This document shows positions 33,581-63,292 of a DNA stretch of 64,000 nt, piece after piece (position 1 is the first letter of the stretch; every line of letters starts with the position of its first letter). Below the pieces are notes generated by a model. The model was not told where the DNA came from. It worked only from the letters and a program-made list of their open reading frames with translations, and searched no databases. The position numbers and the translations under genes were made by a program. The DNA is taken from the IMG/VR virus record IMGVR_UViG_3300042975_000096. One strand, written 5' to 3'. This DNA comes from a virus (Duplodnaviria; Caudoviricetes).

Positions 33581-34023
33581 TCGTTTTTCGTTTCGCCCAT
33601 AATTCCCATTCAGATTGCCATCAGAAGCCCACATTCGCCCCACAAGCCCGTTAATTGTATTGCCCTATACAAGTGTATGCCCTGTACCAATTCATGCCCC
33701 GTATGCCCCTTATATTTCATGCCCTATATCCCCAAAATCAAGTGAATATCCTACTCTCTCTAGGTGATTATCAGAAAAAGGGTAAAAAATTATATGTGAT
33801 TTTTGAGCGATGGGTCCAGGATAGGGGGGTCAAAATAGGCATAGTTTGGTGGTTTTGAAATAATGCACGGTCTGTGATATATAAACAAATAAAAAATAAA
33901 ACGATAATAGATTTCAGACTATTCTAAAACAATAAGCACACGAAGTTTTCAGACTATTTTGAAATCTTATGGCAATAAAAAATCATCGTAGTATATTTGT
34001 ACTACGATGATAAACAAACACGC

Positions 34024-34516
34024 TTAAAGATTATATTCTTTAATATATTTATTTGCAACAGCTTGCCAATCTGCCCGTTTAGATTCAACAAAAGATTTTA
34101 CGTATTCAATTTTTTCTTCTTTTGTTTCGAGCTGTTTCACCTGCATTATATAAGGCAATTGCTTCTTTTGTAGAAATATGAAAATGATTTGCAATAACAG
34201 CAAAGGAATATTTCTTATCGTGTTCGATATAATACACACCATTTTCCACGGCATAAGCAGGAGAACCATCAAGTTTGCAAAGGTGCAAATCACAAAGCTC
34301 TTTATATTTAGGAAATGCTTTTACGAACCTGTCTGCAATAGCACCACTGTAAATCGAACCACGTCTATCCGGTGTACCCTTTTTTGTTAAACGGCGCACA
34401 TTTCCTGTAATAGAGAAATAACGATGTTTATTTTCATTACCATGGATTGTAACATTCACATTATAAGCCAATTTGTTTTTATAGTCAATTTCTTCAATCC
34501 TTGCAATCTTACTCAT
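34024..34516 (-). pseudogene. conserved phage hypothetical gene split by a frameshift near 34130
   Basis: 34106..34516 (SGAI...LHLC..DG.P.YAVENG.Y) continues naturally in the 34024 frame (ETKEEKIEYVKSFVESKRADWQ...YNL). Confidence 0.6.
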
Positions 34517-34656
34517 TTTAATTACCTCTTTCGCTTAACTCTCTCTTAACTCTATACATATAATACCATAATATTATGTATTTGTCAATGAGTTTTTTAA
34601 ATTATTTTATGATGGGAATTTATACTCAAAATATTCTGAAACATTTTAAGGACAAT

Positions 34657-34694
34657 AAAAAAGACTAAGGGAAAGACTCCCTTAGTCTTTTTTT
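34657..34694. terminator. intrinsic terminator
   Basis: AAAAAAGACTAAGGGA-AAGAC-TCCCTTAGTCTTTTTT; representative of ~25 similar hairpins that end the cassettes in 34-64 kb. Confidence 0.85.
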
Positions 34695-34730
34695 AACGTC
34701 TTATATTCTGCCAATATAGTTGACTTGATT

Positions 34731-34955
34731 CTATCTGATAACCATATTAGGCGTTTCGTTTTCATTCACCGCGAAAGAACCTGTAAAAGTAACTGCGTGT
34801 TCGTCCTTATATAATTCGCTATATAAATCGTCCTCACAAAATTCATTTTTAATAATCTTATCGTTAATGGAGGTCGAGAGTTCTTTAATCTTACCATTTG
34901 CTAATGAAGCATACACATGTAGACGATTCACTTTATCGTTTACATGTTCATCCAC
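34731..34955 (-). pseudogene. probable 5'-truncated gene fragment
   Basis: Protein-like sequence but no RBS or promoter; abuts a plus-strand fragment. Confidence 0.4.
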
Positions 34956-35144
34956 TTTTATTTCTTCAAATCGGTGATATGCTTTGAAGCAGATTCTAAA
35001 AAAGTTTGTGAAAAAATGAAAGGCTATGGCAAACTTAAGATTGCTAATATGCTAGCTGAAAAAGTAGTCGATGAATTATTTCCAGACTCTCCAGAAAGAG
35101 ATGAACTAATTGACACCGCAGTTGATATGTACCTTAATAACTAA
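34944..35144 (+). pseudogene. probable 5'-truncated plus-strand gene fragment
   Basis: Protein-like C-terminus (ANMLAEKVVDELFPDSPERDELIDTAVDMYLNN) followed by a bidirectional terminator at 35154-35190. Confidence 0.4.
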
Positions 35145-35209
35145 TGAATGAATAAAAAAAAGAGATATACTTAAATGTATATCTCTTTTTAACAAACAAT
35201 TATTGTTAA

Positions 35210-35539
35210 TTATTTATTAAAAATATCTTCCTCAATCTTATTCATAAGAGTACCATTGTCGTCTGTATATTCTGGAATTCCATTCTGGTCACAAAACTGT
35301 TTAATAGTCTTATATAAATTTGCTGACATACATGCTTTTATTGCTTCGTCAATCATCTGGGATAAGTCCATATTACTTGCTTCGGCTAGACTTGAGTTAT
35401 TAATTCTAGTTGCTACTTTATCAGCGACAGTTTTCTTAATTTCATCATAATAAGTATCACAGAACATTTCGCTACATCCATTAATAATCTGGTCTTCGCT
35501 CATATCAGCGGCAATTCTTCTAAGTAATCTATTCGTCAT
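35210..35539 (-). CDS. hypothetical acidic protein
   Basis: RBS AGGAG; starts MTNRLLRRIAAD. Confidence 0.8.
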   Translation of the reverse strand: MTNRLLRRIAADMSEDQIINGCSEMFCDTYYDEIKKTVADKVATRINNSSLAEASNMDLSQMIDEAIKACMSANLYKTIKQFCDQNGIPEYTDDNGTLMNKIEEDIFNK

Positions 35540-35706
35540 TTTTTTTCTCCTATAACTTTAATTTATTCTTTTTAAAAACTATGTCCTATATTAGGTATCT
35601 ATACATAATATAGAACAGTTATTCATTTTATATAACATATAAATAAATTATTTTTATTTTTAATAGTGTTTAATTTATATTACAAATATAAAAAATATTT
35701 AGTTGT

Positions 35707-35982
35707 TTATTTATTAAATGTAATGTGTTCTAAAGGAGACATTCCGTACTGTTTACGCATTTCATTTATTTGTTTCCAAATATCTTTATCTTTTTTCTTG
35801 TCGTTTGCTAATGAAGATATAAGATTACGATATTTCTTCGTTTTAATCATTTCTTTATATCGTTTTTGTGTTACATTAATCAAAGAATTGTATATTTTTC
35901 TTCCGATTTCAAATCGTTTGTCTAACATATCTTCTTGATATTTTTCAGTTTTTAAAAGAAATTGAACCACAAAATTTGCCAT
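35707..35982 (-). pseudogene. tnpB: truncated TnpB (N-terminal fragment)
   Basis: MANFVVQFLLKTEKYQEDMLDKRFEIGRKIYNSL resembles clostridial IS605 OrfB N-termini; no RuvC or Zn finger. Confidence 0.75.
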
Positions 35983-36020
35983 AAATATTCACCTCACTTT
36001 GCTATAATATTATTCACTTT

Positions 36021-36422
36021 TTAATATCTCTTTTTCTGATTTTCAACATATTGTTTAATCGTTTCACTACAAACATTTCCAGCAGTTGAAACAAAATAAC
36101 TTCTAGTCCATAGACTGGGCATCTTTGATAATTGCTTAAATTCTTCTCTAAGAATTTTGCTTGTATATCCTTTAATCTGTTGCATAATATTCGATGGACT
36201 TTGAGTAGGCAAACAATTTAAGAACATATGAGAGTGGTCTTTATCACATTCTATTGCTATGATTTCAATTCCTAACTCCTGACATTTTAATTTGACCAGT
36301 TCTTTAAATCGTTGTTCTACTTTAGGTATCAGAAAAATTTTCCTTCTGTATCTTGGACAAAACACAAAATGATAATTTATCAAAGATACAGTTGTATTGG
36401 TATGTCTATAATTATTTTCCAT
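36021..36422 (-). CDS. tnpA: IS200/IS605 Y1 (HUH) transposase
   Basis: YHFVFCPRYRRKIF, DHSH HUH motif, IKGYTS, LWTRSYFVSTAG, IKQYVENQ; promoter position implies a leaderless mRNA. Confidence 0.96.
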   Translation of the reverse strand: MENNYRHTNTTVSLINYHFVFCPRYRRKIFLIPKVEQRFKELVKLKCQELGIEIIAIECDKDHSHMFLNCLPTQSPSNIMQQIKGYTSKILREEFKQLSKMPSLWTRSYFVSTAGNVCSETIKQYVENQKKRY

Positions 36423-36577
36423 ACTTATAGTATATCATATCGTGTGTATGTTGTCAATATGTTTATACATATATTCATCTAATTTTCTATGTATTGTGTG
36501 CTATCCATCCCACACCTAAAGGAGTGGGCTTTTCGCACTTAAATTGTAAACTTTAATTTAATATATTCTGAAAACAT

Positions 36578-36781
36578 TTAAGCTGTTATGAAAATGATTT
36601 TCAACGCACTTTGAATTATCATCCATGCTGAACCTGAAAACCCTGCAATAATCATAATCGCAAGCAACGGGTTTATGTCTTGTTTATCTTTGCATTTATG
36701 ATATTTGTAACAACAATATATAAGCAAAAATACGCCACTAATTAAGACTGCGAATAATTCATTAATGTTATATTCGTCCAT
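36578..36781 (-). CDS. small 2-TM membrane protein
   Basis: Hydrophobic; paralog of 36805..37002 (K.KD..D/NP.LAIMI..G..GSA). Confidence 0.75.
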   Translation of the reverse strand: MDEYNINELFAVLISGVFLLIYCCYKYHKCKDKQDINPLLAIMIIAGFSGSAWMIIQSALKIIFITA

Positions 36782-36804
36782 ATTTTGTTCCTTTCATTCG
36801 TGTG

Positions 36805-37002
36805 TTATATTTGGATAATATGTACCACACAAGAAATCAATAAAATTGCCGAGCCAAACATCCCCACACATATCATAATTGCTAATTGTGGGTCTGTACC
36901 GTCTTTGTCTTTATATTTGATGAAGTTGCAAAAGCAATACAAAAACATTACCACGCCAATAGTAAGCATAATTAACCATTGATTCATTTCTGAAATATTC
37001 AT
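36805..37002 (-). CDS. small 2-TM membrane protein
   Basis: Paralog of 36578..36781. Confidence 0.75.
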   Translation of the reverse strand: MNISEMNQWLIMLTIGVVMFLYCFCNFIKYKDKDGTDPQLAIMICVGMFGSAILLISCVVHIIQI

Positions 37003-37017
37003 ACTTTATACCTTTCA

Positions 37018-37290
37018 TTAATACATTTTATACCAACATGATTCTATTCTGAATATCTTTTTTGATTTCATCATAGTTGTATAACTACAATGAATATATC
37101 CTTCTTTCAATACTTCTTTTGGTGGATTGTTAAATATATTCATTTCATTGACAATATACCATTCTAGTTTTGCAAGTGCATCCGCTTTCGTAGCAAACTG
37201 TTCAATAAATGGTTCATCATCCTCATAGACTTGATGGGTTGTGTAAATGTAATATTTCGTTGTTTGTGCTACATTGTTATTCCGTTGCAT
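37018..37290 (-). CDS. hypothetical protein
   Basis: RBS AAGGTGA. Confidence 0.75.
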   Translation of the reverse strand: MQRNNNVAQTTKYYIYTTHQVYEDDEPFIEQFATKADALAKLEWYIVNEMNIFNNPPKEVLKEGYIHCSYTTMMKSKKIFRIESCWYKMY

Positions 37291-37305
37291 AATGAACTCA
37301 CCTTT

Positions 37306-37533
37306 TTATTTATCTTTATTGTCAAGAATAACTATTGCATTTTTAATTGCGTTTTTAATTAGCTCATTGAATGGACTATTTGATTCCTTTGAATCGGCAT
37401 TTACATTAACTGTAATATTTACTGTTTTCTGTACAGATTGGTTTTCTGTTGGCTGATTGTTACCATACCGATTAATGTTATGTGACTTACAATATCTAAT
37501 GTAGCTTGCGTTTGGCGGTTCATTACGAATCAT
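37306..37533 (-). CDS. hypothetical protein
   Basis: RBS GAGGGAG; promoter upstream. Confidence 0.7.
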   Translation of the reverse strand: MIRNEPPNASYIRYCKSHNINRYGNNQPTENQSVQKTVNITVNVNADSKESNSPFNELIKNAIKNAIVILDNKDK

Positions 37534-37584
37534 TTTTATTCAACTCCCTCTATTTATCTTATGCTATTATTATATCATTGTTTT

Positions 37585-37779
37585 TTATTTTGTCAATGAT
37601 TTCTTACTCATAATTCCGCACCATAATAAACAATATGCTTTGCTGATGTTCTTTTTTCTAAAGTGCTCAAATGGATAAACGTTTGTGTATTCCTCACAAC
37701 TATAGTACCATGTGTCCCAGAACAACTCCATATCAATTTGTAATTTCGTTCGTTTGTTTAGAGATTTATATCGAATCAT
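37585..37779 (-). CDS. hypothetical protein
   Basis: Short ORF with RBS GGTGA. Confidence 0.5.
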   Translation of the reverse strand: MIRYKSLNKRTKLQIDMELFWDTWYYSCEEYTNVYPFEHFRKKNISKAYCLLWCGIMSKKSLTK

Positions 37780-37861
37780 CTTATCACCATTTTTCAGAAT
37801 ATTATAAAATATTATTTATTCAATGAAATTCGGCAATATTTAGTTATTGCCGAATTTTGAT

Positions 37862-38059
37862 TTAGTGCTCATTGTTACATTCACATTCATATTCACGTTC
37901 AGATTGATTACACGCTCTTGACGTTGGGTCTTTAACTGGGGCTACATTATATATGCAACGACCATTATCTTGATACAAGCAACCACCATATTCAGTACAA
38001 GCAAACGTATCTTTTCCAAATCTATCTACATTCTTAAAATAAGATTCATTTAATATCAT
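37862..38059 (-). CDS. small Cys-rich protein
   Basis: Multiple Cys residues; terminator follows. Confidence 0.65.
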   Translation of the reverse strand: MILNESYFKNVDRFGKDTFACTEYGGCLYQDNGRCIYNVAPVKDPTSRACNQSEREYECECNNEH

Positions 38060-38255
38060 ATTTTAGCACTTCCATTTCTCTTTCGTCACGGTCTGCAACA
38101 TTAATTACAACGTCGTTATTATCAAATCCGTTTTCAATCAAAAACTCATGGATTGCATTTTCCAATCTGGATTCTCCCAAACTACTTCTCATGAAGTGAC
38201 CGAGTTTCAAATACTGAATGTCATTATCATTAAAAATATCAAGTTCGATTTTCAT
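38046..38255 (-). CDS. hypothetical protein
   Basis: RBS GAAGGA. Confidence 0.7.
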   Translation of the reverse strand: MKIELDIFNDNDIQYLKLGHFMRSSLGESRLENAIHEFLIENGFDNNDVVINVADRDEREMEVLKYDIK

Positions 38256-38273
38256 TTTATTGTCCTTCTTTCA

Positions 38274-38618
38274 TTACAACAAATTATAAAACTGTGAATT
38301 AAACATTTTAGGATAACCGTTTCGTTCTCCTGCTCGATATGCTTCATTCTGCAAATAAAAAGCCATGTCCATTCCACAACCATGAACGATTACACAACCG
38401 TTCGTAGTTTTTGCCGTAGAGTGCTTCATGTGAACAAAATCAGCTACCATTTGAGAAATATCATTGCCATTAATAAAACAACGAAAATAACGGCTGTCAT
38501 TACCATTGCCATATCTATCTTTTACAATTCGTTCTAAGGAAAGTGTTAACCGTGTTTCTTTATCCAAAAGGTCATGCTCTTTCATCCAATCAATCAACAT
38601 TCTAATTACCTCTTTCAT
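38274..38618 (-). CDS. conserved phage hypothetical protein (GCGMDM motif)
   Basis: VHGCGMDMAFYL motif. Confidence 0.8.
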   Translation of the reverse strand: MKEVIRMLIDWMKEHDLLDKETRLTLSLERIVKDRYGNGNDSRYFRCFINGNDISQMVADFVHMKHSTAKTTNGCVIVHGCGMDMAFYLQNEAYRAGERNGYPKMFNSQFYNLL

Positions 38619-38680
38619 TTAACTCTCTCTTAACTCTGTATATATAATACCATATTTTTATTTATTTGTCAATAGTTTTT

Positions 38681-38923: not shown

Positions 38924-39086
38924 TCCTTCTCTTAACTCTATAATTATAATATCATATAATTAAAAAAATGTCAAGTATTTTTTTGCACAATCATTCAATT
39001 TTAGAATAATCTGAAAACATATAAGACAATAAAAAAGCAAGTCTATTAAATAGACTTGCTTTCTAAAATCATCAACTCATAGCTTT

Positions 39087-39854: not shown

Positions 39855-40014
39855 GATAGGCTCTCCTTTAACTCTTAATTAACTCTGTATATATAATATC
39901 ACAATTAAATAAAAATGTCAATATATTTTTAAAAAGTATATTGATGAATCATTTTAGAATAATCTGAAAACTTTTAACGATGAAAATAAAAAAGGGGGAG
40001 TTGCCCCCATACAA

Positions 40015-40632: not shown

Positions 40633-40803
40633 CTCTCTCTTTAACTTGCTTAACCTATCTCTTAACCATGCTTAAATAATACCACAAATCAACGTAAATG
40701 TCAATAGGTTTTTTATTTTTTTGTAACATTAGTAACCATTTTTATAATAATCTGAAAATAATTTTGATATAAAAAAGAGAGGGAATATATCCCCCCCCTT
40801 TTT

Positions 40804-41214: not shown

Positions 41215-41624
41215 GATTAATTACCTCTCTTTTTAACTTGCTTAACTATCTCTTAACCATGCTTAAATAATACCACAAATTAATGTAAATGTCAATAGTT
41301 TTTAAAAACATTTTTCAGTTTTCAGAATATTATAAAATAATTTGCGATGAAAAAAGAAGGAGGGAAGTTAATCCCTCCTATGATTAAAGTTTCTCCAACA
41401 CAAGGCTGGTAAGGAACGAAATTGATTCTTAATCAATGATTCCCATATCTGGAATGATTTTTTCAGCTAAAATCATTTTTCTATTTTTTGGAAATCTTTT
41501 TTGTCCAATTATTAATTTCCTCTGTTTTCCCCTCAATATATGTTTTTCTTGTTTGTGTGTTCTTTGCCAATTTGTAGCGCAAAAAAAAGAGAAGGTGTTA
41601 TTTCCCTTCTCTCTAAATTAAACC

Positions 41625-42769: not shown

Positions 42770-42869
42770 ATATTATTCAATTTGTCAACACTTTTTTAAA
42801 ATATATTATTTCTAAATATTCTGAAACATTATTAATAAAAAAATAAATGGGATATATAATATATCCCAT

Positions 42870-44182: not shown

Positions 44183-44344
44183 TTATAACTCCCCCCTTTC
44201 TTTAACTCATACTTAACTCTTATACTATAATACCACAGTATTAAATAATTGTCAACACATTTTTTATTTTATATATTTCTAAATATTCTGAAAACAATAC
44301 GATGGATAAAAAATACAGGTCTATCGTATAGACCTGTATCGATA

Positions 44345-44923: not shown

Positions 44924-45060
44924 TTCAAAAGCCCCTTTTCTTTAACTCTTTTATTAACTCTATACATATAATAACACAACTTTAGTTCTTTGTCAATAGT
45001 TTTTTAAAAATATTTTATCTATATTTTTCAGACTATTATGAAACTATTTATAGGCAAAAT

Positions 45061-45125: not shown

Positions 45126-45221
45126 ATTTCAATTCACGCACCCGTATGGGTGCGACTAATGCCTGAAATTAGATTGACTCTATATCAGGTATTTCAATTC
45201 ACGCACCCGTATGGGTGCGAC
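45126..45221 (-). CRISPR. type I-C CRISPR mini-array (two identical 31-nt repeats, 34-nt spacer)
   Basis: GTCGCACCCATACGGGTGCGTGAATTGAAAT at 45221-45191 and 45156-45126; spacer ACCTGATATAGAGTCAATCTAATTTCAGGCATTA; GTCGC..hairpin..ATTGAAAT is the I-C repeat type. Confidence 0.93.
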
Positions 45222-45421
45222 AGCACACATGCCAAAGCCTTGCTACGCAAGGGTTGAAATGGCACTTTGTGCGAACCCCTTAATATTTTACGAATTTCGT
45301 TGACACGCCCACATGAAAATGCGTATGAACCCTGTAAAACAAAGGGGTGCGAAGCACCTAGCGTTTTTCTGTTCACTTATGCTTCGCACTTATTATAACA
45401 TTATGTTTGTTATTTTGTCAA
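45222..45421 (-). promoter_or_regulatory. type I-C CRISPR leader with promoter
   Basis: GTGCGAAGCA-TAAGTGAACAGAAAAACGCTAGG-TGCTTCGCAC inverted repeat typical of Bacillota I-C leaders; TTGACA-18-TATAAT at 45421-45392. Confidence 0.8.
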
Positions 45422-45680
45422 GTGCTTTTTTTACATTCATTTTCAGACAATTATGAAATACTATAATAAGAATGTATTTTTTTCAAAGATAATTTTTTCT
45501 ACCTTCAATAACACTTTTTTGTGTTCCCATGTATATTTAATATGCTCTTTATTTTTAATCATATATACCTCCATTCCTTCTTGTAATTACCCACATTGGT
45601 TTTTATATCAATGTGGGTAAAACTTATATATATTATATTATAAATGCCCTCACAATTGATTTACCGGCTTTTGACAGATA

Positions 45681-46419: not shown

Positions 46420-46566
46420 TTCAAATCACCCTCTCTATTATTATAATACCATATATATCTTTATTTGTCAACTATTTTTTAATGTTTTGTTTTGGGATGA
46501 TATTTAGAATAGTTTGAAAACTTATAGCAGACAATAATAAAAGAGGGGATTTCTCCCCCCTTAATG

Positions 46567-47145: not shown

Positions 47146-47351
47146 TTCAAAAACCCCTTTTCTTTGTTTAACTCTCTCTTAACTCTGTTTATATAATACC
47201 ACACAATATTATAAATGTCAACAACTTTTTAAACTTTTTTATTGGATTTTTTAATGCATATACCTTCCCATTGTTTTATAATATTCTGAAATATTTTACC
47301 TCTAAAAAAACAGGACTTGTATGTTGGCAACAAGTCCTGTTTCCTATCGTT

Positions 47352-47681: not shown

Positions 47682-47860
47682 TTTAGATTACCCCTTCCGC
47701 AACTCTCTCTTAACTCTGATATAATAATACCACAGTTCTTGTTATTTGTCAAGATATTTTTTAATAAATTGGTTAGCTAATTATTGCTAAATATTCTGAA
47801 ATATTTTAGGGATAAAAATTAAGAGGTCTATATATAGACCTCTTAATTACACTTGTTTAG

Positions 47861-48541: not shown

Positions 48542-48955
48542 TTAATAATTTAATTCTTCTTTTGCAAACCCTTCATCCGTGGAATAATAAATGGTTTTTA
48601 TTCCTACTTGCTTAATCATTGTCAAACAAGCCTTACAAGGTCTTGCAAGTGAAGGTTTACCGTGCTTGTACCGATATACATATATTTCTGCTTTTGTTAA
48701 ATCATAGTCCATAGCTTTAATAATACATGCCATTTCTGCATGAGTTGAATTTCGACACCTGTCTACGAATCTATTTTCGCCCCATCGAACCAAATTATAT
48801 TTTGCTTGTAATGGGTGTGATTTTTTCAAATTCGGACTAACAGCAACAATATCTTTATTCAGTACAAGGATTGCCCCTATTTTTACTCTATCAAATTCAG
48901 ACGTAAGACTTACTTCTTTTGCTATGTTAAAATATCGCGCTTCTCTATTATTCAT
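48542..48955 (-). CDS. Zn-dependent cytidine/dCMP-deaminase-superfamily protein
   Basis: HAE...PCKAC catalytic motifs; KIGAILV; GIKTIYYST. Confidence 0.88.
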   Translation of the reverse strand: MNNREARYFNIAKEVSLTSEFDRVKIGAILVLNKDIVAVSPNLKKSHPLQAKYNLVRWGENRFVDRCRNSTHAEMACIIKAMDYDLTKAEIYVYRYKHGKPSLARPCKACLTMIKQVGIKTIYYSTDEGFAKEELNY

Positions 48956-49110
48956 TGTTTTCCCTCTTTACTATCTATACTATAATTATATAGAATAAAT
49001 AATAATTTGTCAACCATATTTTAACACAATTATATTTCAGAATATTTTGAAATATGAACATATACAATAAAAAAGCAAGGGATTTTCCTTGCTTTTTGTA
49101 TGACAAAAAA

Positions 49111-49323: not shown

Positions 49324-49507
49324 TCAGTTCGTCAATTTTCAAAAGGCTTACACGCAAAAGGTGATTGTAATTCTTTGCTTTTGCATTTTCATAATATTCA
49401 TCAATTTCTTCTTCGGATTTTCCTTCTTTTTTCATGGCATTTGCAACGTAGCCCATAACACAAAATGCATTACCGTCAACCCCTACCAAACTGTACTTTT
49501 CGTCCAT
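49307..49507 (-). CDS. conserved small phage protein; paralog of 50068..50289
   Basis: LVGVDGNAF.VMGYV..AM...G...EEI..Y...A...Y..LL. Confidence 0.85.
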   Translation of the reverse strand: MDEKYSLVGVDGNAFCVMGYVANAMKKEGKSEEEIDEYYENAKAKNYNHLLRVSLLKIDELNELYR

Positions 49508-49723
49508 TGTTATTGCCCCTTTTCTTTAATAAACTATTTTTTCTCTATGGTTATATAATACCACTTTATTAGCTTTATGTCAATAGTTTTTGAAAAAAAT
49601 TTCTGTTTTTTTAAGATTAAATATTATAGAAATCAATAAACCGAAACAATTTCAGAATATTATAAAATAATATGATTTGATAAAAAACATGAAAGGTATA
49701 TATACCTTTCATGTTTTTATTAT

Positions 49724-50289: not shown

Positions 50290-50437
50290 AATATACTCCT
50301 TTTTGCTCTTTTTCTCTATGGTTATATAATATCATAAATAATTTATTTTGTCAACATGTTTTTTAAATTTATATTTTAGAATATTCTGAAACATTATATA
50401 AAAAAGAAGTGATAAAACATACCACTTCTCTCAACAA

Positions 50438-50958: not shown

Positions 50959-51154
50959 CTGCTTTCCAAAACATAGACAAACATGGACATGTAAAATTTA
51001 TCCATATTTATATTAATGTCTAAATTTTTTAATTACTTTCGTCACCATTTGTATTCTGATATCAATTATTTAATACCACATTGACAAACTCTTAAAGTTT
51101 AAGGCGTAAGCCACGCCCTTTACTAATAAATGAATTAATTAATTAATTCATTTA
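50959..51154 (-). ncRNA. putative TnpB omegaRNA (reRNA) scaffold region
   Basis: Lies between the tnpB stop and the right end; hairpins include GGCGTGGCTTACGCC and a 38-bp perfect palindrome at 51122-51159. Confidence 0.55.
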
Positions 51155-52318
51155 TTAGTTAGCTAAAGCTAATAGATTCATTACTGCGTTATAATCTCTA
51201 TCTGCGGTGAACCCACACTTATAACATATATATTCATTATGTTTTGTTTTATGTCTTTTATTGCCTGACAAAGTGATTTTATCTTCACCTGTTTTTACAT
51301 GTCCACAACAAGAACATCTTTGAGTTGATGGGTAAAATCTATCAGCTATAATTAACTTTTTTCCATACCAATTACATTTATATGTAAGCAGTTGTCTAAA
51401 TAAACCAAAACACGACCTTTGCAAGCCTTTTGATGCTACATGTGTCATTTGCATATGTTTCACATCTAAATCTTCTATTACTATTGTATCATATTTATCT
51501 GTTAGCATAGTTGTGAATTTATGTAAAATATCATGGGTTAAGTTGCTTGCTTTTTCATAATCACGTTGAAGTTTGGTTCTCACTTTTAAGTAATTATTAC
51601 TCTTGCAAGCGTTTTTCCCTTTTATTATATGCTTTTTCGCTAACATTTTTTGATAATGTTTGATACGATTATAATAAAAGTTTAATTTCTTGGGTAAAAC
51701 ATTCAAATTACCATCAGTGTAATTAAAATGACCTACATTTACATCTATTGCTGTTTTTTTATTTGTTAAAACTTTTGTTTCAACACTGGTTTTATAAGGT
51801 AATGAAGCATAATATTTATTATTGACTTTAGTCACACTAACTACTGTTAAATCGGCATCAAAATTTTTTGGTAAACCTTTGATTTTAATATTTTGCCATT
51901 TTTCTTGAATTTCTCTAGGCTTATCTAATTTTAATTTACCATTTTTAATTGTAATTCTATCTGATTTGAAACCTTGTTTTGTATCTTTTTTGGTTTTGAA
52001 TTTAGGTTTTCCCCAATCAAGCTGAGATTTGCTTAAAAAATGATTCCAAGCATTTCCCAAATCTAAAATTGCTTGTTGTAAAATTCTTGAAGAATATTTA
52101 TATTGCCAATCTTGTTTATTTTCAACAAGTTCATTTCTTACAACACGTTCGTTAGGTGCTTTGTAAGATTTATCGATACAATGTAAATCATACATTTGAT
52201 TCCATGTTTCTAAACCTTGATTCCAACAATATCTGCGATAGTCGCAAAGATTATCTAAAACCTGTTTCATATGTTTGCTTGGATAAAGTTTTACTTTGAT
52301 GGTCTTTATTGTTTTCAA
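51155..52318 (-). CDS. tnpB: RNA-guided endonuclease TnpB
   Basis: KLYP..., R.CWN, PKFK, RuvC AIDVN / VIEDL / DRDYNA, YPSTQRCSCCG...C..CG Zn finger. Confidence 0.95.
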   Translation of the reverse strand: MKTIKTIKVKLYPSKHMKQVLDNLCDYRRYCWNQGLETWNQMYDLHCIDKSYKAPNERVVRNELVENKQDWQYKYSSRILQQAILDLGNAWNHFLSKSQLDWGKPKFKTKKDTKQGFKSDRITIKNGKLKLDKPREIQEKWQNIKIKGLPKNFDADLTVVSVTKVNNKYYASLPYKTSVETKVLTNKKTAIDVNVGHFNYTDGNLNVLPKKLNFYYNRIKHYQKMLAKKHIIKGKNACKSNNYLKVRTKLQRDYEKASNLTHDILHKFTTMLTDKYDTIVIEDLDVKHMQMTHVASKGLQRSCFGLFRQLLTYKCNWYGKKLIIADRFYPSTQRCSCCGHVKTGEDKITLSGNKRHKTKHNEYICYKCGFTADRDYNAVMNLLALAN

Positions 52319-52669
52319 TTATTTATTTTCCCCCCTTTTTTAAGTATATTTGAGTACACTTGCTTCTATAAATTAAATTAAATTATTTGTGGATAAATGT
52401 GTTTATGAGTATATTTTTATATGTTTGAACACATTTGTCTATATTTTTAGTTACTTAACTTGTCCTCCATCGCATCCTGCTAATAAAAAAACAAATATAA
52501 CTAATACAATCGAAATGTATTTTTTCATAATAACCCCTCACTCCATTTATTAATTATATTATAGCATTTTATTGTCTTACTGTCAAGCATTTTTTACAGA
52601 TTCATTTTCAGACAATTATGAAATGCTATAGGATAAAAAATTTGGAAGGGGATTTCTCCCCCACCACTA

Positions 52670-53527: not shown

Positions 53528-53650
53528 TTTGAAAACCCCTTTTCTTTTTCTCTCTATGGTTATATAATACCACACTATTGCATAAATGTCAACATGTTTT
53601 TAAAATTTTTTAACCAACTATATTTCAGAATATTTTGAAACACATAAACG

Positions 53651-53723: not shown

Positions 53724-53755
53724 ATTTCAATTCACGCACCTCTGTGAGGTGCGAC
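53724..53755 (-). CRISPR. type I-C solitary repeat (32 nt) followed by a ~34-36 nt spacer-like segment
   Basis: GTCGCACCTCACAGAGGTGCGTGAATTGAAAT then ATTGATAGTACGAAGTACCACATGATGCGTTATT. Confidence 0.88.
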
Positions 53756-53955
53756 AGCACACATGCCAAAGCCTTGCTATGCAAGGGCTGAAATGGCACT
53801 TTGTGCAAACCCCTTAATATTTTTCAAAATTCATTGACACATTATCGCCCAAATATGTATTAACCCTGTAAAACAAAGGGGTGCGAAGCACCTAGTGTTT
53901 TTCTGTTCACTTATGCTTCGCACTTATTATAACATTTTACTTATTCATTTGTCAA
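53756..53955 (-). promoter_or_regulatory. second copy of the type I-C leader with promoter
   Basis: Co-linear with and largely identical to 45222-45421. Confidence 0.85.
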
Positions 53956-54106
53956 GTATTTTTTATTCAAACGAATTTTCGTTTGAAATTTTACTTATTT
54001 CTGCGCTTGCAATATGAAAATCATCACAAGAAATATTCAAAGACAATGATTGATTGGAATCATACATATATGTAGAAGAAATCATATCCATTGTTGTCCT
54101 CCAATC

Positions 54107-54824: not shown

Positions 54825-54981
54825 TTTGAAAGCCCCTTTTCTTTATTTCTCTCTCTTAACTCTATAATTATAATATCATATATTTTTCATTGTGTCAATA
54901 GTTTTTTAAAAAATAAATATTCTGAAAACTTTTTCAAATAAAAAAATAATCAATGAGTAATCAACCCATTGACTATTTTAA

Positions 54982-55185: not shown

Positions 55186-55338
55186 TTTTTTATCTCCCTG
55201 TTGTTTTATTTGATAGTATTAGTTTACTATACATTTGATTATTTGTCAACAACTTTTTTCGTATAAAATTTTTCAGAATATTATGAAATAATATTACTAT
55301 AAAAATAAGCAGGTCTATAACATAGACCTGCCTGTTAA

Positions 55339-55581: not shown

Positions 55582-55729
55582 TTTGAAAACCCCTTTCAAT
55601 GTGTTTATCTCTCAATCTCTATTATTATAATAACACATATATGGGATTTTGTCAACATGTTTTCAAAAATAAATTTTAGCTAAATATTTCAGAATATTAT
55701 AAAATAACATTACGATGATTTATAAATCA

Positions 55730-56547: not shown

Positions 56548-56709
56548 AATTAACTCATCCTCTCTCTATCTCTTTTTGTTATATTAATAATACCACATTC
56601 AGCAAAGAATGTCAACACTTTTTTATTTTAATTTCTTTTATAATATTCTGAAACATTTATCGTCAATAAAAAAGAAGAAGGTATAATCACCTTCTTCCTC
56701 GCTTTTATG

Positions 56710-57691: not shown

Positions 57692-57793
57692 CCCACTACA
57701 TTATTGTATGCTAAATGCTGTTTTTGTTTTATATTATTCTGAAAACATTTAGGTGGATAAAAATAAGGTGGATATTTCTATCCACCTTATTCC

Positions 57794-58510
57794 TTAAAAA
57801 TTCTTCACAAACTTGTACAGGCTGAACAATTCAGCCCTAAACTGTTCGTCTTTGGTATAATCTTTTCCCTCACGTTTATCATATTCCATAGCACTAACTA
57901 CAGGCTGTACATACTGTGGGAGAAGCTGGCTGAATGAGAAAACACTATCGCACATGTGTTCACGCGAAATTTTATTCATAAATTCCTTAGAAGGACTAAG
58001 TATATTCATGCCAATTTCCATATATGCACGACGTACTTTTTCCATAATGCTTTCAAAAGAATACTCATTAAGGGCTTTGTTCTTTTTGTATTTATTCAAA
58101 CGCTTGTAAAGTGCACTTTTTGGAGAATCATCTTTCCAATATATGCCCGTTTTCTTATATGCGTTTTCACGACCGTTAATGTAGATTTTCCAAAGGTTCT
58201 GCATTTCTACCTCATATACCTTTGAACACTCAAACAGCACGTTCTCCCAACCTCTTTCGCCACCACAATTCCGAATCACTTTTTTATCCTTGGTAATTTT
58301 CAACAGTGAACCGTATTTAGACACAAAGAAGAAATACGTCTGTTTTTTTGGTTTGTATCCCTGCAATTCAGCAGGATTGTAAGCCTTGACTGTTACATTC
58401 GACAGACGAATACCGGTTTCGTGTGCAATGCTTCTTGCAGAATCAAAGAAACCGTGACCTTTTTTGCAACCAATCAGTTTTGCTAAATTCGCGTTTTCAA
58501 TAATTTCCAT
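57794..58510 (-). CDS. hypothetical protein
   Basis: Cassette gene with promoter, GAGTTAA leader and terminator. Confidence 0.85.
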   Translation of the reverse strand: MEIIENANLAKLIGCKKGHGFFDSARSIAHETGIRLSNVTVKAYNPAELQGYKPKKQTYFFFVSKYGSLLKITKDKKVIRNCGGERGWENVLFECSKVYEVEMQNLWKIYINGRENAYKKTGIYWKDDSPKSALYKRLNKYKKNKALNEYSFESIMEKVRRAYMEIGMNILSPSKEFMNKISREHMCDSVFSFSQLLPQYVQPVVSAMEYDKREGKDYTKDEQFRAELFSLYKFVKNF

Positions 58511-58689
58511 TTTAATTACCTCTTTCCTTTTTTGTTTAACTCTCTCTTAACTCTGTTTATATAATATCATAGATTTATAAAAATGTCAACGATTTTTTAA
58601 AAAATATTAACATTTTTATTGTGAATCCATCATGACTTATCTATTTCTAAATATTCTGAAATTTAATTCCATTAAATCAAAAAGCACGA

Positions 58690-58851
58690 CTAGAAGTTAA
58701 CCACCTTCTTATCGCGCTTTCTGTTGTATACTTTTTTGGACTGTACGACCGAACCATAGGCTTTCACCTGCCCCCACGTGCCACGCTTTTCAGCGTTAGC
58801 ACGTTTCTGCTCTTTCTTTGACCGCTTATTAAATTCTACAAATTTCTTCAA
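58690..58851 (-). CDS. small basic protein (53 aa; below the ORF-track cutoff)
   Basis: TTG start after GGAGG: MKKFVEFNKRSKKEQKRANAEKRGTWGQVKAYGSVVQSKKVYNRKRDKKVVNF. Confidence 0.7.
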   Translation of the reverse strand: MKKFVEFNKRSKKEQKRANAEKRGTWGQVKAYGSVVQSKKVYNRKRDKKVVNF

Positions 58852-58854
58852 GTA

Positions 58855-59136
58855 TTATCCCTCCGCATTTATCCAATAATTAATATTAATGATTTCGCCC
58901 GGTTCAACTTCTCTTTGCAAAAGCTGTGGATTAAGTTCTTTGATTCCTTCTTTGAACTCTTTAATCTCTCTAACCCCATAAGTGTTTTTAATGATATGAT
59001 TGTTTGCAATGCTGTCAAGTGTATCACCCTGCACCACCATATAATGTTCTTGAACCATAGTATAAGGTTTTGGACTTGCAAAACCAACCGTAGAGAATCC
59101 AACCAACATAATCATTACAACAATCAACTTTTTCAT
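58855..59136 (-). CDS. secreted/membrane LysM-domain protein
   Basis: Signal peptide, then YMVVQGDTLDSIA...IKELNP.L....VEPGE.I.I. Confidence 0.85.
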   Translation of the reverse strand: MKKLIVVMIMLVGFSTVGFASPKPYTMVQEHYMVVQGDTLDSIANNHIIKNTYGVREIKEFKEGIKELNPQLLQREVEPGEIININYWINAEG

Positions 59137-59138
59137 TT

Positions 59139-59351
59139 TTAACACTCCTTTTTTATTTCCTTGTATTTTAAGGAAACATCGCTTTCATTGCACTTATAGT
59201 ATACTTGAATTGAACCAAATTTTATTAACTCTCTTAAAAAACAAACTGCTTCTTTTTCTGATTTTGCACCAACTCTATATCTACCTGCCGTATCATGCTT
59301 ATATGGATTATGATTATCAACAAGCAATATATAATTATTAATTGGTTTCAC
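59139..59351 (-). CDS. hypothetical protein
   Basis: RBS GAGGA; promoter upstream. Confidence 0.75.
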   Translation of the reverse strand: MKPINNYILLVDNHNPYKHDTAGRYRVGAKSEKEAVCFLRELIKFGSIQVYYKCNESDVSLKYKEIKKEC

Positions 59352-59452
59352 TCTTTGTTCCTCTCTACTCTTTTATAATAACACATAATAATATTATTGT
59401 CAACACTTTTTTACAAATATCAATAACAATATACTTTCAGACTATTTTAAAA

Positions 59453-59749
59453 TTATTTAACTCTTTCATGATAATTTAAAACCGCTTTTATTTTCCCCTC
59501 CGAACGATATCGGCAATATGCAGAAAACTTCCTGCTGGTTTGTTTATCAAATTCATTAATTTGTTTTACCGCTTCTGCTCTTGAATCCATCACCCCAAAA
59601 AAAGCACTCTTTAATGGTGTGATTGGATTAATTTTTTTATCATGTTTTTTGTGAATATCTAGTTTAATACATTCATGTAAATAATCTCTAGTTTCATTAT
59701 TCAACAATTTAAAATTATGTACATCAATTAATCCAAACACCATTCCCAT
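59453..59749 (-). CDS. hypothetical protein
   Basis: Coupled to the cca stop codon. Confidence 0.7.
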   Translation of the reverse strand: MGMVFGLIDVHNFKLLNNETRDYLHECIKLDIHKKHDKKINPITPLKSAFFGVMDSRAEAVKQINEFDKQTSRKFSAYCRYRSEGKIKAVLNYHERVK

Positions 59750-60978
59750 TATTTACAATCCCCATTTCCAATTTTCATTTCAAGCACTTTATTTTGTAAT
59801 GCTTTAATTTTTAAATTACGAACAAACGCTTTAATATCACTTGTTTTTTTCATGTGTGATGGAATTGAAATGTTAACCGAATTAACTAATTTGAAAATCG
59901 GTTCTTCCAAAAACCATGCAACATTATTTGAATCAGCATTCACAATTTGTCTAAATCCTTCTCTATCAATGTTTTTATGTTTCATTTCAGTCAACATATC
60001 CACAATTTTACCAAGGTTCTTCATGTTAATCACTCGCATGTGATAATTTGAAGTAAATTTTGCCATTGTTTTCCATTTATTCAAATACGTCTGTGGTAAT
60101 GATTCAATCAAATCAACTCCTACAACGTCATGTCCTCTATATGGTGCTTCAAGCGCACCCTTGCCAATATCATGTGTTAATGCAGAAAACCTCACACAAA
60201 CGTCATTATTGACCTGCGAAACCTTATCCAAAATCAACATGGTATGTTCAAATGCATCACCTTCAGGATGCCATTTCCTTGACTGCTCTTTGCCAATCAA
60301 ATTAAATACAAATGGAAATGTAACATCTAATAAATCCGCTTCTTTCAAAATTCTAAAAAAAGTTGAAGGTTTATCTGTACTTAAAGCCTTTATTAATTCC
60401 GTAACAAAACGCTCATTAGATTCCTTTGCCAATTCTTCTTTGCATAATTTCATTTGTTCCATTGTACTTGAATCGACCGAAAATCCAAATTGTGTAGCCT
60501 GTCTTGCAACCCTCAACGCTCTTACAGGGTCTTCGCTGAAATGATAGGATACATGCCTAATCACCTTGCGTTTAATATCCTCCATACCATTAAACAAGTC
60601 CACAATTTCGCCTGTGAGAACGTTTTTAGCCATTGCATTAATAGTTGTGTCACGTCTGATTAAATCATCCTGCAAGGTAATAGAAGGGTCAAAAAAAATC
60701 TTAAACCCTGTGTAGCCAAATCCTGTTTTGCGTTCTTTTCTTGCGAATGCAACTTCCATTTCTTCGCCGTCAAATTCCATTCTATATACAGGAAAAGAAT
60801 TTCCCATATATGTTGCATTAGGAAACCGTTTATTAAAATCAGATTCTTTAACTCCACAAATCATTAAATCATAATCATGTGGAATTCTTTTCATGATTTC
60901 ATCCCTAACACATCCACCAACAAAATATGCAGTTCCATGCAATTCTTTAATTATATTTGCAAACTCAATAACATTCAT
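59749..60978 (-). CDS. cca: CCA-adding tRNA nucleotidyltransferase with HD domain (multifunctional CCA type)
   Basis: YFVGGCVRD..HDYD, E.A.AR.E, DDL.RRD.TINAMA, F.EDP.R.LR.AR, HPEGD.F.H, HDIGK; start at the RBS-preceded MNVIEF. Confidence 0.92.
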   Translation of the reverse strand: MNVIEFANIIKELHGTAYFVGGCVRDEIMKRIPHDYDLMICGVKESDFNKRFPNATYMGNSFPVYRMEFDGEEMEVAFARKERKTGFGYTGFKIFFDPSITLQDDLIRRDTTINAMAKNVLTGEIVDLFNGMEDIKRKVIRHVSYHFSEDPVRALRVARQATQFGFSVDSSTMEQMKLCKEELAKESNERFVTELIKALSTDKPSTFFRILKEADLLDVTFPFVFNLIGKEQSRKWHPEGDAFEHTMLILDKVSQVNNDVCVRFSALTHDIGKGALEAPYRGHDVVGVDLIESLPQTYLNKWKTMAKFTSNYHMRVINMKNLGKIVDMLTEMKHKNIDREGFRQIVNADSNNVAWFLEEPIFKLVNSVNISIPSHMKKTSDIKAFVRNLKIKALQNKVLEMKIGNGDCK

Positions 60979-61116
60979 TTCTCTCACCTCTATTATAAAT
61001 AATATCATATTTACATTGTTTTGTCAATGTATTTTTAATAGCACCGTTAAATTTCAGAATATTTAGAAACAAAATCATCGATAAAAAAATAAGAGGGAAA
61101 TATCCCCCTTACTTTT

Positions 61117-61684
61117 TTATTCAACGCTGAATTTAGCTTGATGTGCATTTTCTGGAACAAAAATCACACACTCTTTCCATTGGTCTAAAAACTCATCCTC
61201 TAAAAATTTATAGTTTGCTTTTTTGATTGTTTGCATAACTACAATATTAACATGTGGTGTAACTGTATTATCAAATCTAATGAATGTTTTATTTGCATTA
61301 TACGACTTTCTAATATATGATTCTTTACCATCTTTGATATGCTTTTCAAACACAACATATTCTGAAACCTTATTCGCACTTCCAGATATATAGCCAATAA
61401 AAAAATCATTAGAACCATTCATTTTCATTTGATAGTTGGAATCATTTTTAATGCTGATAATATCATAATCGGTTTCACTTAAAACAACATTTTCTTGTTC
61501 ACTCCAACCATATTTATTACACATTAATCCACTAAAAACCAATAACAAAAAAAATGGCAATACCTGTTTTAGCATAACGCGAATATGAACTACTCAGCCA
61601 TACTGGGTAAAAACAAAACAATAAACAGAACGCAATAAGACACATTATTGTTAATATCCAAATATCACTTGAACTAAAAACCAT
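61117..61684 (-). pseudogene. membrane protein gene with a +1 frameshift
   Basis: RBS-preceded ATG at 61684 encodes a hydrophobic N-terminus that stops near 61532; the body 61117..61575 is in another frame; a T8 run lies in the overlap. Confidence 0.55.
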
Positions 61685-61687
61685 AGT

Positions 61688-61924
61688 TTACCTCTCATTC
61701 ATATCTGGACAAAATTCATCTTCGTCCTCATCATTTCCGAACATTTTTTCCCAACACTCACCACAAGTATGAGATATAAAAAGTTCTCGTTCTTCGGCAG
61801 ACAAATTCGGAAACACGTTCTGAATCAGTTCCCCTTCTTTCCAACGTTCAATGTCTTTAGGGTTAAGGTTGAACTTGAATTCCTTACCACAATCTCTACA
61901 TTTTACTATATAAATCATTTTCAT
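61688..61924 (-). CDS. small Zn-ribbon phage protein
   Basis: CRDCG...G.LIQ..FP.LS.EERE..IS..C..CW..MF. Confidence 0.85.
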   Translation of the reverse strand: MKMIYIVKCRDCGKEFKFNLNPKDIERWKEGELIQNVFPNLSAEERELFISHTCGECWEKMFGNDEDEDEFCPDMNER

Positions 61925-61933
61925 TTCCCCTTA

Positions 61934-62134
61934 TTAATTCTGCTTATTGAAAAGCTCAATAAATTCTTCGTCATCACTTGTCATTTCAAAACTTCCGTCT
62001 ACATAATATGAATCGTTTGGAAGCTTGAAATTATCCGAATTCAAACGGAATTTTTTCATTGCTTCTTTTACAGAATCAGCTTCAATCGTAACAACCCCAG
62101 CCATTTCATAAGTTACAGGAATATTAATTTTCAT
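61934..62134 (-). CDS. hypothetical protein
   Basis: IPV.YEM.G.V.IEA.S..EA...LP....YVDGSFE. Confidence 0.8.
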   Translation of the reverse strand: MKINIPVTYEMAGVVTIEADSVKEAMKKFRLNSDNFKLPNDSYYVDGSFEMTSDDEEFIELFNKQN

Positions 62135-62305
62135 TTCAATTACCTCTTTCTTTTGTTTAACTCTTTCTTAACTCTGTACACATCATATCATGATTCTTGT
62201 TATTTGTCAACATGTTTTTTATAAAATTTATACCCTGTATTTTATAATATTCTGAAAACTTTTTCACGCCTAAAAAATGGAGGGGATTTAATCCCCTCCA
62301 CTATA

Positions 62306-62737
62306 TTAATTGTGCACTGTATAGGTCACTGACTGCTTCATATTTTCGTCCAAATCAACCGTAATATCTTTTCTCAAACAATCAAGAAAAACCTGTGATA
62401 CATATTCAATAAATTCTCGATTATAATATTTTCTTACTACGTCGTGACCAATAACCTTTACTTTAAGTTCTCTATACAAACATGGCTTTACAATAACAGT
62501 AAAATCACTCCATCCTGCATAATATCCGTTTTCGTCAAGATGGTGATATGAACTATTGATAACAAGCTTTTCACCACTTGATTTTTCTTCTACAATTTTA
62601 CACCCATTATCAAACCCAGAGCCACTTGGAAGAATATCCTCAACGTTCTCCAAACGTGTGTCCACATTAACCAAATATTCATTAGTAACAGTTTTTTTCC
62701 ACTCACACAATTTAGCGATTTCATAATACAGTTTCAT
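62306..62737 (-). CDS. conserved phage hypothetical protein
   Basis: LPSGSGFD.G...YHH.DENGYY.GW..F.V.V.P. Confidence 0.85.
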   Translation of the reverse strand: MKLYYEIAKLCEWKKTVTNEYLVNVDTRLENVEDILPSGSGFDNGCKIVEEKSSGEKLVINSSYHHLDENGYYAGWSDFTVIVKPCLYRELKVKVIGHDVVRKYYNREFIEYVSQVFLDCLRKDITVDLDENMKQSVTYTVHN

Positions 62738-62862
62738 TTTTAATTCCCTCTTTCATTTAACTTGTTGTTCTCTCAATCTCTATTATTATAATACCACACT
62801 CTTATAAATTTGTCAATAAGTTTTTTATTTTTTTTGATTGAAGTAATTCCTAAATATTCCAT

Positions 62863-63135
62863 TTATTTGATTTTAATAATTTCATAGCAACAATGGTTAA
62901 AGTAGTTAATTCCCGAATAGCCAATGCCTTTATTATCATTAACCATAATACAAGTATCCTCACCATAATTGTAATGGAACTTAAATTTAGTGGCGTTGAT
63001 TTTCCCTCCCCAAGTAAAACCCTGTTCTTCCAAATACAACATAATAGCATTGCAAATACTCTCTTTTGGAGCATGAATAACTGCTTTATGAGAAGCACAA
63101 TAATCCACAGCATTTTTGATATTCATAATTTTCAT
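62863..63135 (-). CDS. hypothetical protein
   Basis: Cassette gene with promoter and RBS. Confidence 0.75.
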   Translation of the reverse strand: MKIMNIKNAVDYCASHKAVIHAPKESICNAIMLYLEEQGFTWGGKINATKFKFHYNYGEDTCIMVNDNKGIGYSGINYFNHCCYEIIKIK

Positions 63136-63292
63136 TTTTAATTCCCTCTCTCGTTCAACTCATTCTTAACTCTATATATAGAATATCACATTTATTTGTA
63201 TTTGTCAATAAGTTTTTTACATACTTATTTTGAAATATTCTGAATTATTATAATAAGATAAATTAAAAGGAGGGGACGTTCCCTCCTTTTAA

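Follow-up and report, generated by a model that had tools for sequence, protein, structure and literature searches.

In the virus record IMGVR_UViG_3300042975_000096 (Duplodnaviria; Caudoviricetes), of which we analysed one stretch of 64,000 nucleotides (the window), an 18-bp palindrome, TTTCAGAATATTCTGAAA, recurs in the gaps between genes and tracks terminators, not promoters. Judging from sequence alone, we read it tentatively, and with something short of even confidence, as a double-stranded DNA operator that would act as a roadblock or insulator just past the terminator, the putative binder being host CodY or a phage protein. Part of a 430,772-bp JGI metagenome contig (3300051660, Ga0527070_013) shares 99.6-99.96% identity with the window, and shorter contigs from other samples match it equally closely, with near-identical sequence found in bioreactor-sludge and wastewater runs of 13 studies. 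No close relatives were found among GenBank phages (megablast, tblastn) or in IMG/VR (protein comparison), and a literature search found no publication containing the sequence.

The palindrome is repeated far beyond expectation: 27 copies in the window have three or fewer mismatches, where 0.33 would be expected and no more than 3 appeared in any of 100 shuffles. Another three, with four mismatches, stand in the canonical context (36556, 46502 and 63228), and a further four-mismatch match at 49387 lies inside an open reading frame (ORF) and is probably due to chance. None of the copies is perfectly palindromic. Within the window they are confined to 33912-63245, and positions 1-33 kb hold no copies, only three isolated four-mismatch matches. 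A first-pass annotation, made from the letters of the window, had claimed both the repeated palindrome and its restriction to 33.9-63.2 kb, with the left 33 kb empty, and the scan bears out both claims. The array extends beyond the window, with 7 copies in the next 7 kb and 6 more to about 79 kb (window-equivalent coordinates), so that the verified copies in the window and the adjoining DNA number at least 43. Alignment, spacing and pair counts were taken from the 37 copies between 33.9 and 71 kb.

Read along the direction of transcription, the typical unit consists of a stop codon, an intrinsic terminator with a GC-rich stem, its T-tract, a spacer, the palindrome, a second spacer, an A-rich UP-like tract, a promoter of the form TTGACA-N14-TGnTATTAT, a purine-rich leader that often begins AGAGTTAAG, a Shine-Dalgarno sequence and the gene. 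All genes of the window (GC content 25-33%) lie on the minus strand, and the palindrome is thus behind the terminators in the direction of transcription. Alignment of the copies on the palindrome brings the T-tract and the C-rich descending stem into register, with a T at -15 in 31 of the 37, and information falls to background immediately beyond the 18 bp, giving the motif sharp borders. The gap from the end of the T-tract to the palindrome is 8-19 nt with a mode of 12-14, and that from the end of the stem is 14-24 nt with a mean of about 19.5. From the end of the palindrome to the -35 box, the distance ranges from 19 to 66 nt, is never below 19 and is multimodal, falling into classes of 19-21 (n=11), 24 (n=3), 29-32 (n=11), 35-36 (n=3), 52-54 (n=2) and 62-66 nt (n=2). 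These measurements agree with the tight terminator distance and the variable promoter distance described in the first-pass annotation.

Of the 37 terminators predicted between 33.9 and 71 kb, 31 have the palindrome behind them, 14-24 nt past the stem. The palindrome is missing from seven or eight consensus promoters of the array that are preceded by a stop codon but by no terminator (62816, 57423, 54525, 48533, 43695, 38672 and 37596), and three terminator- or hairpin-linked sites, comprising four copies (33947/33912, 37792 and 57727), have the palindrome without a consensus promoter, as had been reported for these sites before. The promoter at 62816 offers a natural comparison between strains. 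Here the roughly 96% identical relative L040 carries a 51-bp block made of a terminator hairpin, T-tract, 12-nt spacer and palindrome, whereas the window lacks the terminator and retains no more of the palindrome than a trace of its right half, as a deletion between two CAGAAT repeats would leave. The earlier suggestion that the site activates the promoter downstream of it is weakened, because equally consensus promoters without a terminator carry no palindrome.

Across the nine pair positions of the palindrome, no compensatory double change was found among the 37 copies, and the site is therefore taken to be read as duplex DNA, not as an RNA or cruciform hairpin. Only 5 of 37 copies retain the G6:C13 pair, and breaks were counted in 13 copies for pair 4:15, in 24 for 6:13 and in 14 for 8:11. 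The predicted folding energy of most copies is 0 kcal/mol, that is, no fold. In 22 of the 37, one perfect half (TTTCAGAAT) stands beside a degenerate half, and the perfect half lies on the terminator side in 12 and on the promoter side in 10, so asymmetric variants occur in both orientations. This is the pattern of a predicted two-fold symmetric protein site, neither an RNA element nor a directional signal.

Comparison of the window lineage with two relatives from ENA (L040 and L042; strains 95-99% identical) gave a divergence of 3.1% (11/360) for the palindrome, next to 3.5% for the -35 box, 4.1% for the extended -10 box and 2.4% for mostly coding sequence. Higher values were obtained for the terminator-palindrome spacer (6.8%), the palindrome-promoter spacer (8.0%) and the promoter spacer (10.2%), and the difference between the palindrome and its adjoining spacers (3.1% versus 7.6%) is significant (Fisher p = 0.002). 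Seven of the 11 palindrome changes fall in two wholly replaced intergenic modules, in which a palindrome is nevertheless present at the same position. By this measure, the palindrome is under constraint comparable to that of the -35 and -10 boxes.

How such a site could work is suggested by its distance from the terminator. In intrinsic termination, RNA is released 7-9 nt past the stem, near the end of the T-tract, and a bacterial elongation complex covers roughly 12-14 bp of downstream duplex. Polymerases halted by EcoRI-Q111 reportedly stop about 14 bp short of the site, in work ascribed to Pavco and Steege in 1990. We propose that a two-fold symmetric protein, either a dimer or two overlapping dimers, would bind the palindrome as duplex DNA in the sole stretch of the unit not meant for transcription, the gap that separates an intrinsic terminator from the strong sigma-A-type promoter after it. 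Because the palindrome starts 12-14 bp past the T-tract, the front edge of a read-through polymerase would meet the bound protein while its active site is in the U-tract. The protein, especially one with a 24-bp footprint, could then halt the polymerase where release is easiest, backing up the terminator and shielding the next promoter from read-through. A border function would fit the tandem copies with which the array ends at low coordinates, past the last terminator and before a 700-bp non-coding stretch.

Several points weigh against a post-terminator roadblock. The left 33 kb contains some 10 terminators and some 14 consensus promoters, in many cases separated by just 2-8 nt, and these terminators manage with no palindrome behind any of them. 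The tight spacing could also reflect mere close packing of footprints in minimal intergenic gaps. Moreover, the distances from palindrome to -35 box step by about 10-11 bp, with a Rayleigh peak near 11 bp (p about 2e-4, uncorrected and from non-independent copies), which hints at a link to the promoter. Some metatranscriptome contigs cross terminator, palindrome and promoter, an observation that DNA carry-over could explain and that is thus uninformative. Since footprint packing gives the same geometry and the stepped distance keeps a promoter-linked role alive, the roadblock is held here as a tentative proposal, and a promoter operator as a possible but rather doubtful one.

Under the latter explanation, the palindrome would be a class-wide switch of about 60 early promoters, at which a phage regulator or host CodY, bound upstream of the UP-like A-tract, represses or boosts transcription, and closeness to the terminator would be a matter of packing. 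A consensus promoter does follow 32 of the 37 copies, the distance classes lie about 10-11 bp apart, and because the distance never falls below 19 nt, the site always abuts the UP-like tract. In addition, the private -10 variant (TATTAT) and private leader motif of the region suggest one regulatory class. There is also a precedent in the SPbeta repeated element (SPBRE), which is bound by the phage's master repressor MrpR (PMC10516654). This explanation is, however, difficult to reconcile with the seven or eight promoters, equally strong and belonging to the same class, that lack both a preceding terminator and the site, or with the four copies that have a terminator and no promoter. Furthermore, the site never overlaps the core promoter, unlike SPBRE in SPbeta, and its spacing is unimodal to the terminator but not to the promoter.

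If the palindrome is an operator, host CodY appears to be the best single candidate for its binder, with a phage-encoded protein of like specificity following closely in likelihood. The CodY box is the 15-nt AATTTTCWGAAAATT, and the usual 24-nt operator consists of two boxes overlapping by 6 nt (Wray and Fisher 2011; Hainzl et al. 2023, PMC10415144). Aligned with nt 4-21 of AATTTTCAGAATTTTCAGAAAATT, the optimised 24-nt site used for CodY-DNA crystal structures (PMC10415144), TTTCAGAATATTCTGAAA is identical in 17 of 18 positions, which makes it a predicted CodY-like core, with CWG centres 9 bp apart as in overlapping CodY operators. Over the full 24 nt, single copies have 5-9 mismatches (mean 6.1). 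In the CodY site, T15/T15' are almost invariant and their alteration abolishes binding, T6 is contacted, and the C7-G18' pair is frequently absent from real sites (PMC10415144). Of the 37 palindromes, 36-37 preserve the counterparts of T6, A10/T15 and A19, position 7 being A in 37 and position 12 being T in 36, and the preserved and variable positions fit the tolerance published for CodY. The most variable positions are 4/15 (53/74 conserved) and 6/13 (41/74), the counterparts of C7 and G9. An operator in AT-rich DNA usually conserves its rare G/C positions most strongly; that they are the ones that vary most here is a non-trivial argument for CodY or a domain resembling it. CodY is also a documented roadblock protein, listed with CcpA among the natural roadblocks of B. 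subtilis (PMC10310618).

Other observations count against CodY itself. Conservation does not extend to the outer AAT/ATT flanks, the three bases at either end (nt 1-3 and 22-24), whose symmetrised consensus is A-T-A and not A-A-T. The single 15-nt boxes within the copies have 2-8 mismatches (median 4), and boxes with up to three mismatches occur by chance about 22 times per 64 kb at this AT-rich composition. Phage G has no copy of the palindrome, nor does L039, a second phage of the same sample, whose terminators abut its promoters. Among the matches listed, the exact 18-mer is scattered over bacterial genomes of many phyla and is not concentrated in Bacilli. A terminator-locked arrangement of many copies in one phage region is not described for CodY, and we found no paper in the literature on CodY sites in the early regions of lytic phages. 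The CodY interpretation put forward in the first-pass annotation therefore survives in part: the core match, the pattern of tolerated changes, the roadblock-compatible geometry and the tracking of terminators speak for it, whereas the outer flanks and the poorly matching single boxes do not. Repressors encoded by phages themselves are also known to use dispersed operators, as with SPBRE/MrpR and the stoperators, and offer an alternative to CodY. The specific proposal that the phage recruits host CodY to about 60 sites, each one polymerase footprint behind an early terminator, and thereby makes termination and insulation depend on amino-acid and GTP status, seems to us unlikely on this evidence. 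A Pfam search of the 62 ORFs of the palindrome region found no recognisable DNA-binding regulator.

Clues to the host are weak. A solitary type I-C CRISPR (clustered regularly interspaced short palindromic repeats) repeat at 53724-53755 is identical at 30 of 32 positions to arrays on plasmids of Bacillus thuringiensis and Lacticaseibacillus paracasei, a match that makes a host among the Bacilli probable. For a TnpB protein encoded in the window, the closest named relatives are from Lactobacillales (62-64% identity). CodY occurs in many Bacilli and is absent from some lactobacilli. Two mini-units of the window (53724-53960 and 45190-45431) consist of a consensus promoter, a leader of about 170 nt, one such solitary repeat, about 34 nt of further sequence and a terminator, with no cas genes. 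Contigs of other runs have differing 30-34-nt inserts between repeat copies, and spacer content therefore varies between populations.

A different use of CodY would be a decoy array, which titrates the host protein as the phage genome replicates and so de-represses host amino-acid supply genes, the sites standing behind terminators because bound protein survives there. The CodY-matching core and the number of verified copies would suit this purpose, as would unrelated phage contigs that carry dense CodY-like arrays phased at 9 bp (L007). Nevertheless, we consider a decoy improbable, given that a sponge needs neither fixed spacing nor one site per unit and would be cheaper as a dense array of the L007 kind, and that no copy is optimal and the flanks are poor.

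Searches of IMG/VR for the exact 18-mer returned single chance matches and two contigs in which CodY-like sites form dense tandem arrays, an arrangement distinct from the terminator-locked palindrome. In one of them, the unrelated 43-kb viral contig 3300045988_114060 (L007:200-600), dense TTCAGAAT/TTCTGAAA units are phased at 9 bp and include the exact 18-mer with full CodY flanks, and the array looks like a candidate landing pad for multiple CodY dimers. Clusters are also present in L019, L168/L193 and L192. Searches for the palindrome with a promoter in IMG/VR, and for T-tract, palindrome and -35 box in JGI metagenomes, gave chance matches only and no other lineage with the architecture, and a palindrome of different sequence, GGTAAAATTTACC, was not found in SPbeta, phi3T or three IMG/VR contigs.

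The palindrome might instead serve recombination or mobility, either as a crossover point of cassettes, as in PeSL-like or integron-like systems, or as a REP (repetitive extragenic palindromic)-like miniature element moved by the IS200-type Y1 transposase encoded at 36021-36422. Every cassette is indeed flanked by copies, strains differ by cassette indels and replaced intergenic modules, identical asymmetric variants occur in both orientations, and a Y1 transposase is present. Yet breakpoints lie elsewhere. L042 lacks a 680-bp two-gene cassette (window 50309-49632), and this sole clean strain indel crosses over within a 21-bp identity formed by the -10 box and the start of the leader, outside the palindrome, contrary to the earlier suggestion of a cassette recombination site. 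In L040, the replaced modules extend from the terminator into the opening codons of the following gene. The palindromes themselves, which differ by 1-4 nt, therefore offer little homology. As for mobility, the copies have not kept the potential to form a hairpin, the transposase is part of an ordinary insertion sequence (IS) of the IS605 type with its own end hairpin, the TnpB element sits within a gene, and the palindrome shows no compensated hairpin linked to a Y1 transposase of the kind that marks REP sequences with their REP-associated tyrosine transposases (RAYT) or IS200/IS605 ends. A recombination role is thus very improbable. From these breakpoints, cassette shuffling is PeSL-like but runs via promoter-leader homology, with the palindrome apparently as passenger.

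Two mobile elements were recognised in the region. The TnpB-only IS at 50963-52465 (387 aa) is inserted in a 95-aa gene and is absent from L042 and from part of the population, where a contig of DNA run X1 joins across the site; the copy in the 430-kb contig is internally deleted (282 aa). An IS605-type remnant at 35707-36573 comprises a left-end hairpin, the IS200-like Y1 transposase TnpA (36021-36422, E = 2.5e-37) and a truncated TnpB N-terminus (35707-35982), and it adjoins a half palindrome. In counting rearrangements, DNA-run joints whose short sides lay inside repeated promoter-leader sequence were excluded. The 430-kb contig is patchy relative to a contig from another sample (L163:8130-9450 versus L164:1380-3200), with numerous short deletions in which promoters, terminators, three palindromes and portions of genes are lost, and this patchwork may be real decay or an assembly artefact.

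That the palindrome is a structural element of RNA or DNA, be it a second terminator hairpin, an RNA processing site or a cruciform, can be put aside as wildly improbable: the consensus can form a 6-bp hairpin (-5.3 kcal/mol) and lies just past the terminator, but the reading is contradicted by the pair counts given above, with no compensatory change and most copies unfolded.

Dispersed operators are already known from other phages, and four systems invite comparison with the proposed roadblock. The stoperators of Cluster A mycobacteriophages (L5/Bxb1-type immunity repressor) are dispersed intergenic sites whose bound protein stops elongating RNA polymerase (PMC9283540). Like them, the palindrome is a short site present in dozens of copies across phage intergenic gaps, and an elongation block would be the analogous function suggested by its geometry. 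Unlike it, stoperators are asymmetric, oriented with transcription, bound by the monomeric repressor of a temperate phage and without a link to intrinsic terminators (PMC9283540), whereas the site described here is palindromic with half-site variants in the two orientations (12 versus 10).

SPBRE, bound by the master repressor MrpR/YopR (PMC10516654), resembles the palindrome as a repeat of about 15 bp in the early-gene intergenic regions of a large Bacillus phage, bound by one protein. Inspection of the SPbeta sequence placed its copies 6 nt from the -35 box, over the -10 box or in the leader. By contrast, 19 nt or more separate the end of the palindrome from the -35 box downstream of it; the palindrome lies outside promoter and leader and tracks terminators. 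No tyrosine-recombinase-like repressor of the MrpR type was seen among the 62 ORFs of the region.

The PeSL cassettes of T4-type phages (Arbiol et al. 2010, PMC2839356) likewise frame small early genes with a strong host-type promoter and a stem-loop terminator, and strain differences arise via repeated regulatory modules. They have no separate palindromic operator, however, and here recombination uses the promoter-leader part and not the palindrome.

A further parallel comes from outside bacteria. In eukaryotic RNA polymerase I transcription, Reb1 or TTF-I bound just downstream of a T-rich release element brings about roadblock-assisted termination. The phage unit similarly has a T-rich element and, about 12 bp on, the site of a putative sequence-specific DNA-binding protein. 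The two differ in domain of life and in polymerase, and the phage unit adds an RNA hairpin terminator. Taken with these comparisons, the palindrome is, as far as its sequence and placement indicate, a lineage-specific and constrained operator-like site whose terminator-locked placement is unusual.

Table 1. Palindrome copies in the window and the promoter at 62816 (window coordinates; gaps in nt)
Feature	Position	Strand	Context
Palindrome, second of tandem pair 35 bp apart	33912..33929		low-coordinate array edge; 2 mismatches; no promoter after
Palindrome	33947..33964		12 nt past T-tract of terminator at 33982; no promoter after
Palindrome, representative unit	34624..34641		T-tract 34662-34657; -35 34588-34583; TGGTATTAT 34568-34560
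Half palindrome	36556..36573		abuts left end of IS605-type element; 4 mismatches
Palindrome	37792..37809		weak hairpin before; no consensus promoter after
Palindrome	38999..39016		terminator gap 14; 24 to -35
Palindrome	39952..39969		terminator gap 13; 30 to -35
Palindrome	40740..40757		terminator gap 13; 35 to -35
Palindrome	41320..41337		terminator gap 12; 24 to -35
Palindrome	42809..42826		terminator gap 10; 20 to -35
Palindrome, representative unit	44276..44293		T-tract 44313-44308; -35 44255-44250; TGGTATTAT 44235-44227
Palindrome	45026..45043		terminator gap 12; 29 to -35
Palindrome	45441..45458		no detectable terminator; precedes promoter of CRISPR-like mini-unit
Degenerate palindrome, 4 mismatches	46502..46519		canonical context
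Palindrome	47274..47291		terminator gap 12; 52 to -35
Palindrome	47784..47801		terminator gap 12; 31 to -35
Palindrome, 1 mismatch	49035..49052		terminator gap 16; 21 to -35
Palindrome	49650..49667		lower border of cassette absent from relative L042
Palindrome, 1 mismatch	50374..50391		upper border of cassette absent from relative L042
Palindrome	52606..52623		terminator gap 11; 19 to -35
Palindrome, 1 mismatch	53623..53640		terminator gap 10; 30 to -35
Half palindrome	54915..54933 (approximate)		fused to UP-like tract of promoter 54898
Palindrome, 1 mismatch	55271..55288		terminator gap 12; 21 to -35
Palindrome	55687..55704		AT-rich hairpin without T-tract before
Palindrome, representative unit	56636..56653		T-tract 56673-56668; -35 56615-56610; TGGTATTAT 56595-56587
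Palindrome	57727..57744		14 nt past strong terminator; no consensus promoter after
Palindrome	58644..58661		terminator gap 17; 54 to -35
Palindrome	59435..59452		terminator weak or absent; 31 to -35
Palindrome	61052..61069		24 to -35
Palindrome	62240..62257		terminator gap 14; 29 to -35
Promoter 62816	62820..62860	-	no terminator, palindrome remnant only; 51-bp block here in relative L040
Degenerate palindrome, 4 mismatches	63228..63245		canonical context

Other features of the units and their surroundings were also recorded. The leader motif AGAGTTAAG occurs in 13 copies against 0.3 expected (window 34534-63173), all on the minus strand and all in the palindrome region, just past the -10 box at the transcript start and often doubled. 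It could be a common 5' leader signal, for example a polypurine stabiliser or a binding site; a polypurine stabiliser is known from SP82 early RNA. Promoters on the minus strand use two dialects, almost always TGnTATTAT at 33.9-64 kb and TGnTATAAT at 1-33 kb, and in the latter region the -35 box lies only 2-8 nt past the terminator T-tract. The terminators near 39036, 44313, 47818 and 55305, and one at 67002 beyond the window, have a common stem (GGTCTAT/ATAGACC) with differing 3-nt loops, and most others are of a G-run/C-run type; the small number of stem families suggests copying between modules. The roughly 700 bp of non-coding DNA that separate the two regions (33200-33900) may be an origin or another cis-acting site: GGGCAT/GGGGCAT repeats cluster there, and a direct repeat of about 70 bp occurs twice at a spacing of about 130 bp, each copy closing with a long A/T palindrome. 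Enzymes recognised among the ORFans are a dCMP/cytidine deaminase (48542-48955), a CCA-adding/poly(A) polymerase-family enzyme with an HD domain (59749-61008) and an NAD-dependent DNA ligase (10253-12211).

If the proposed roadblock is real, the terminators of nearly every early unit in a 430-kb phage would be backed by a DNA-bound protein, which would be a distinct design, and the module of about 100 bp could serve as a compact insulator part. Were the CodY reading true, it would provide a bacterial counterpart of Reb1/TTF-I roadblock termination and a new viral readout of host physiology, with a lytic-type jumbo phage coupling the insulation of its early units to host nutrition. If the binder is instead a phage protein, the palindrome would offer a handle on the master regulator of an otherwise wholly unannotated early region.

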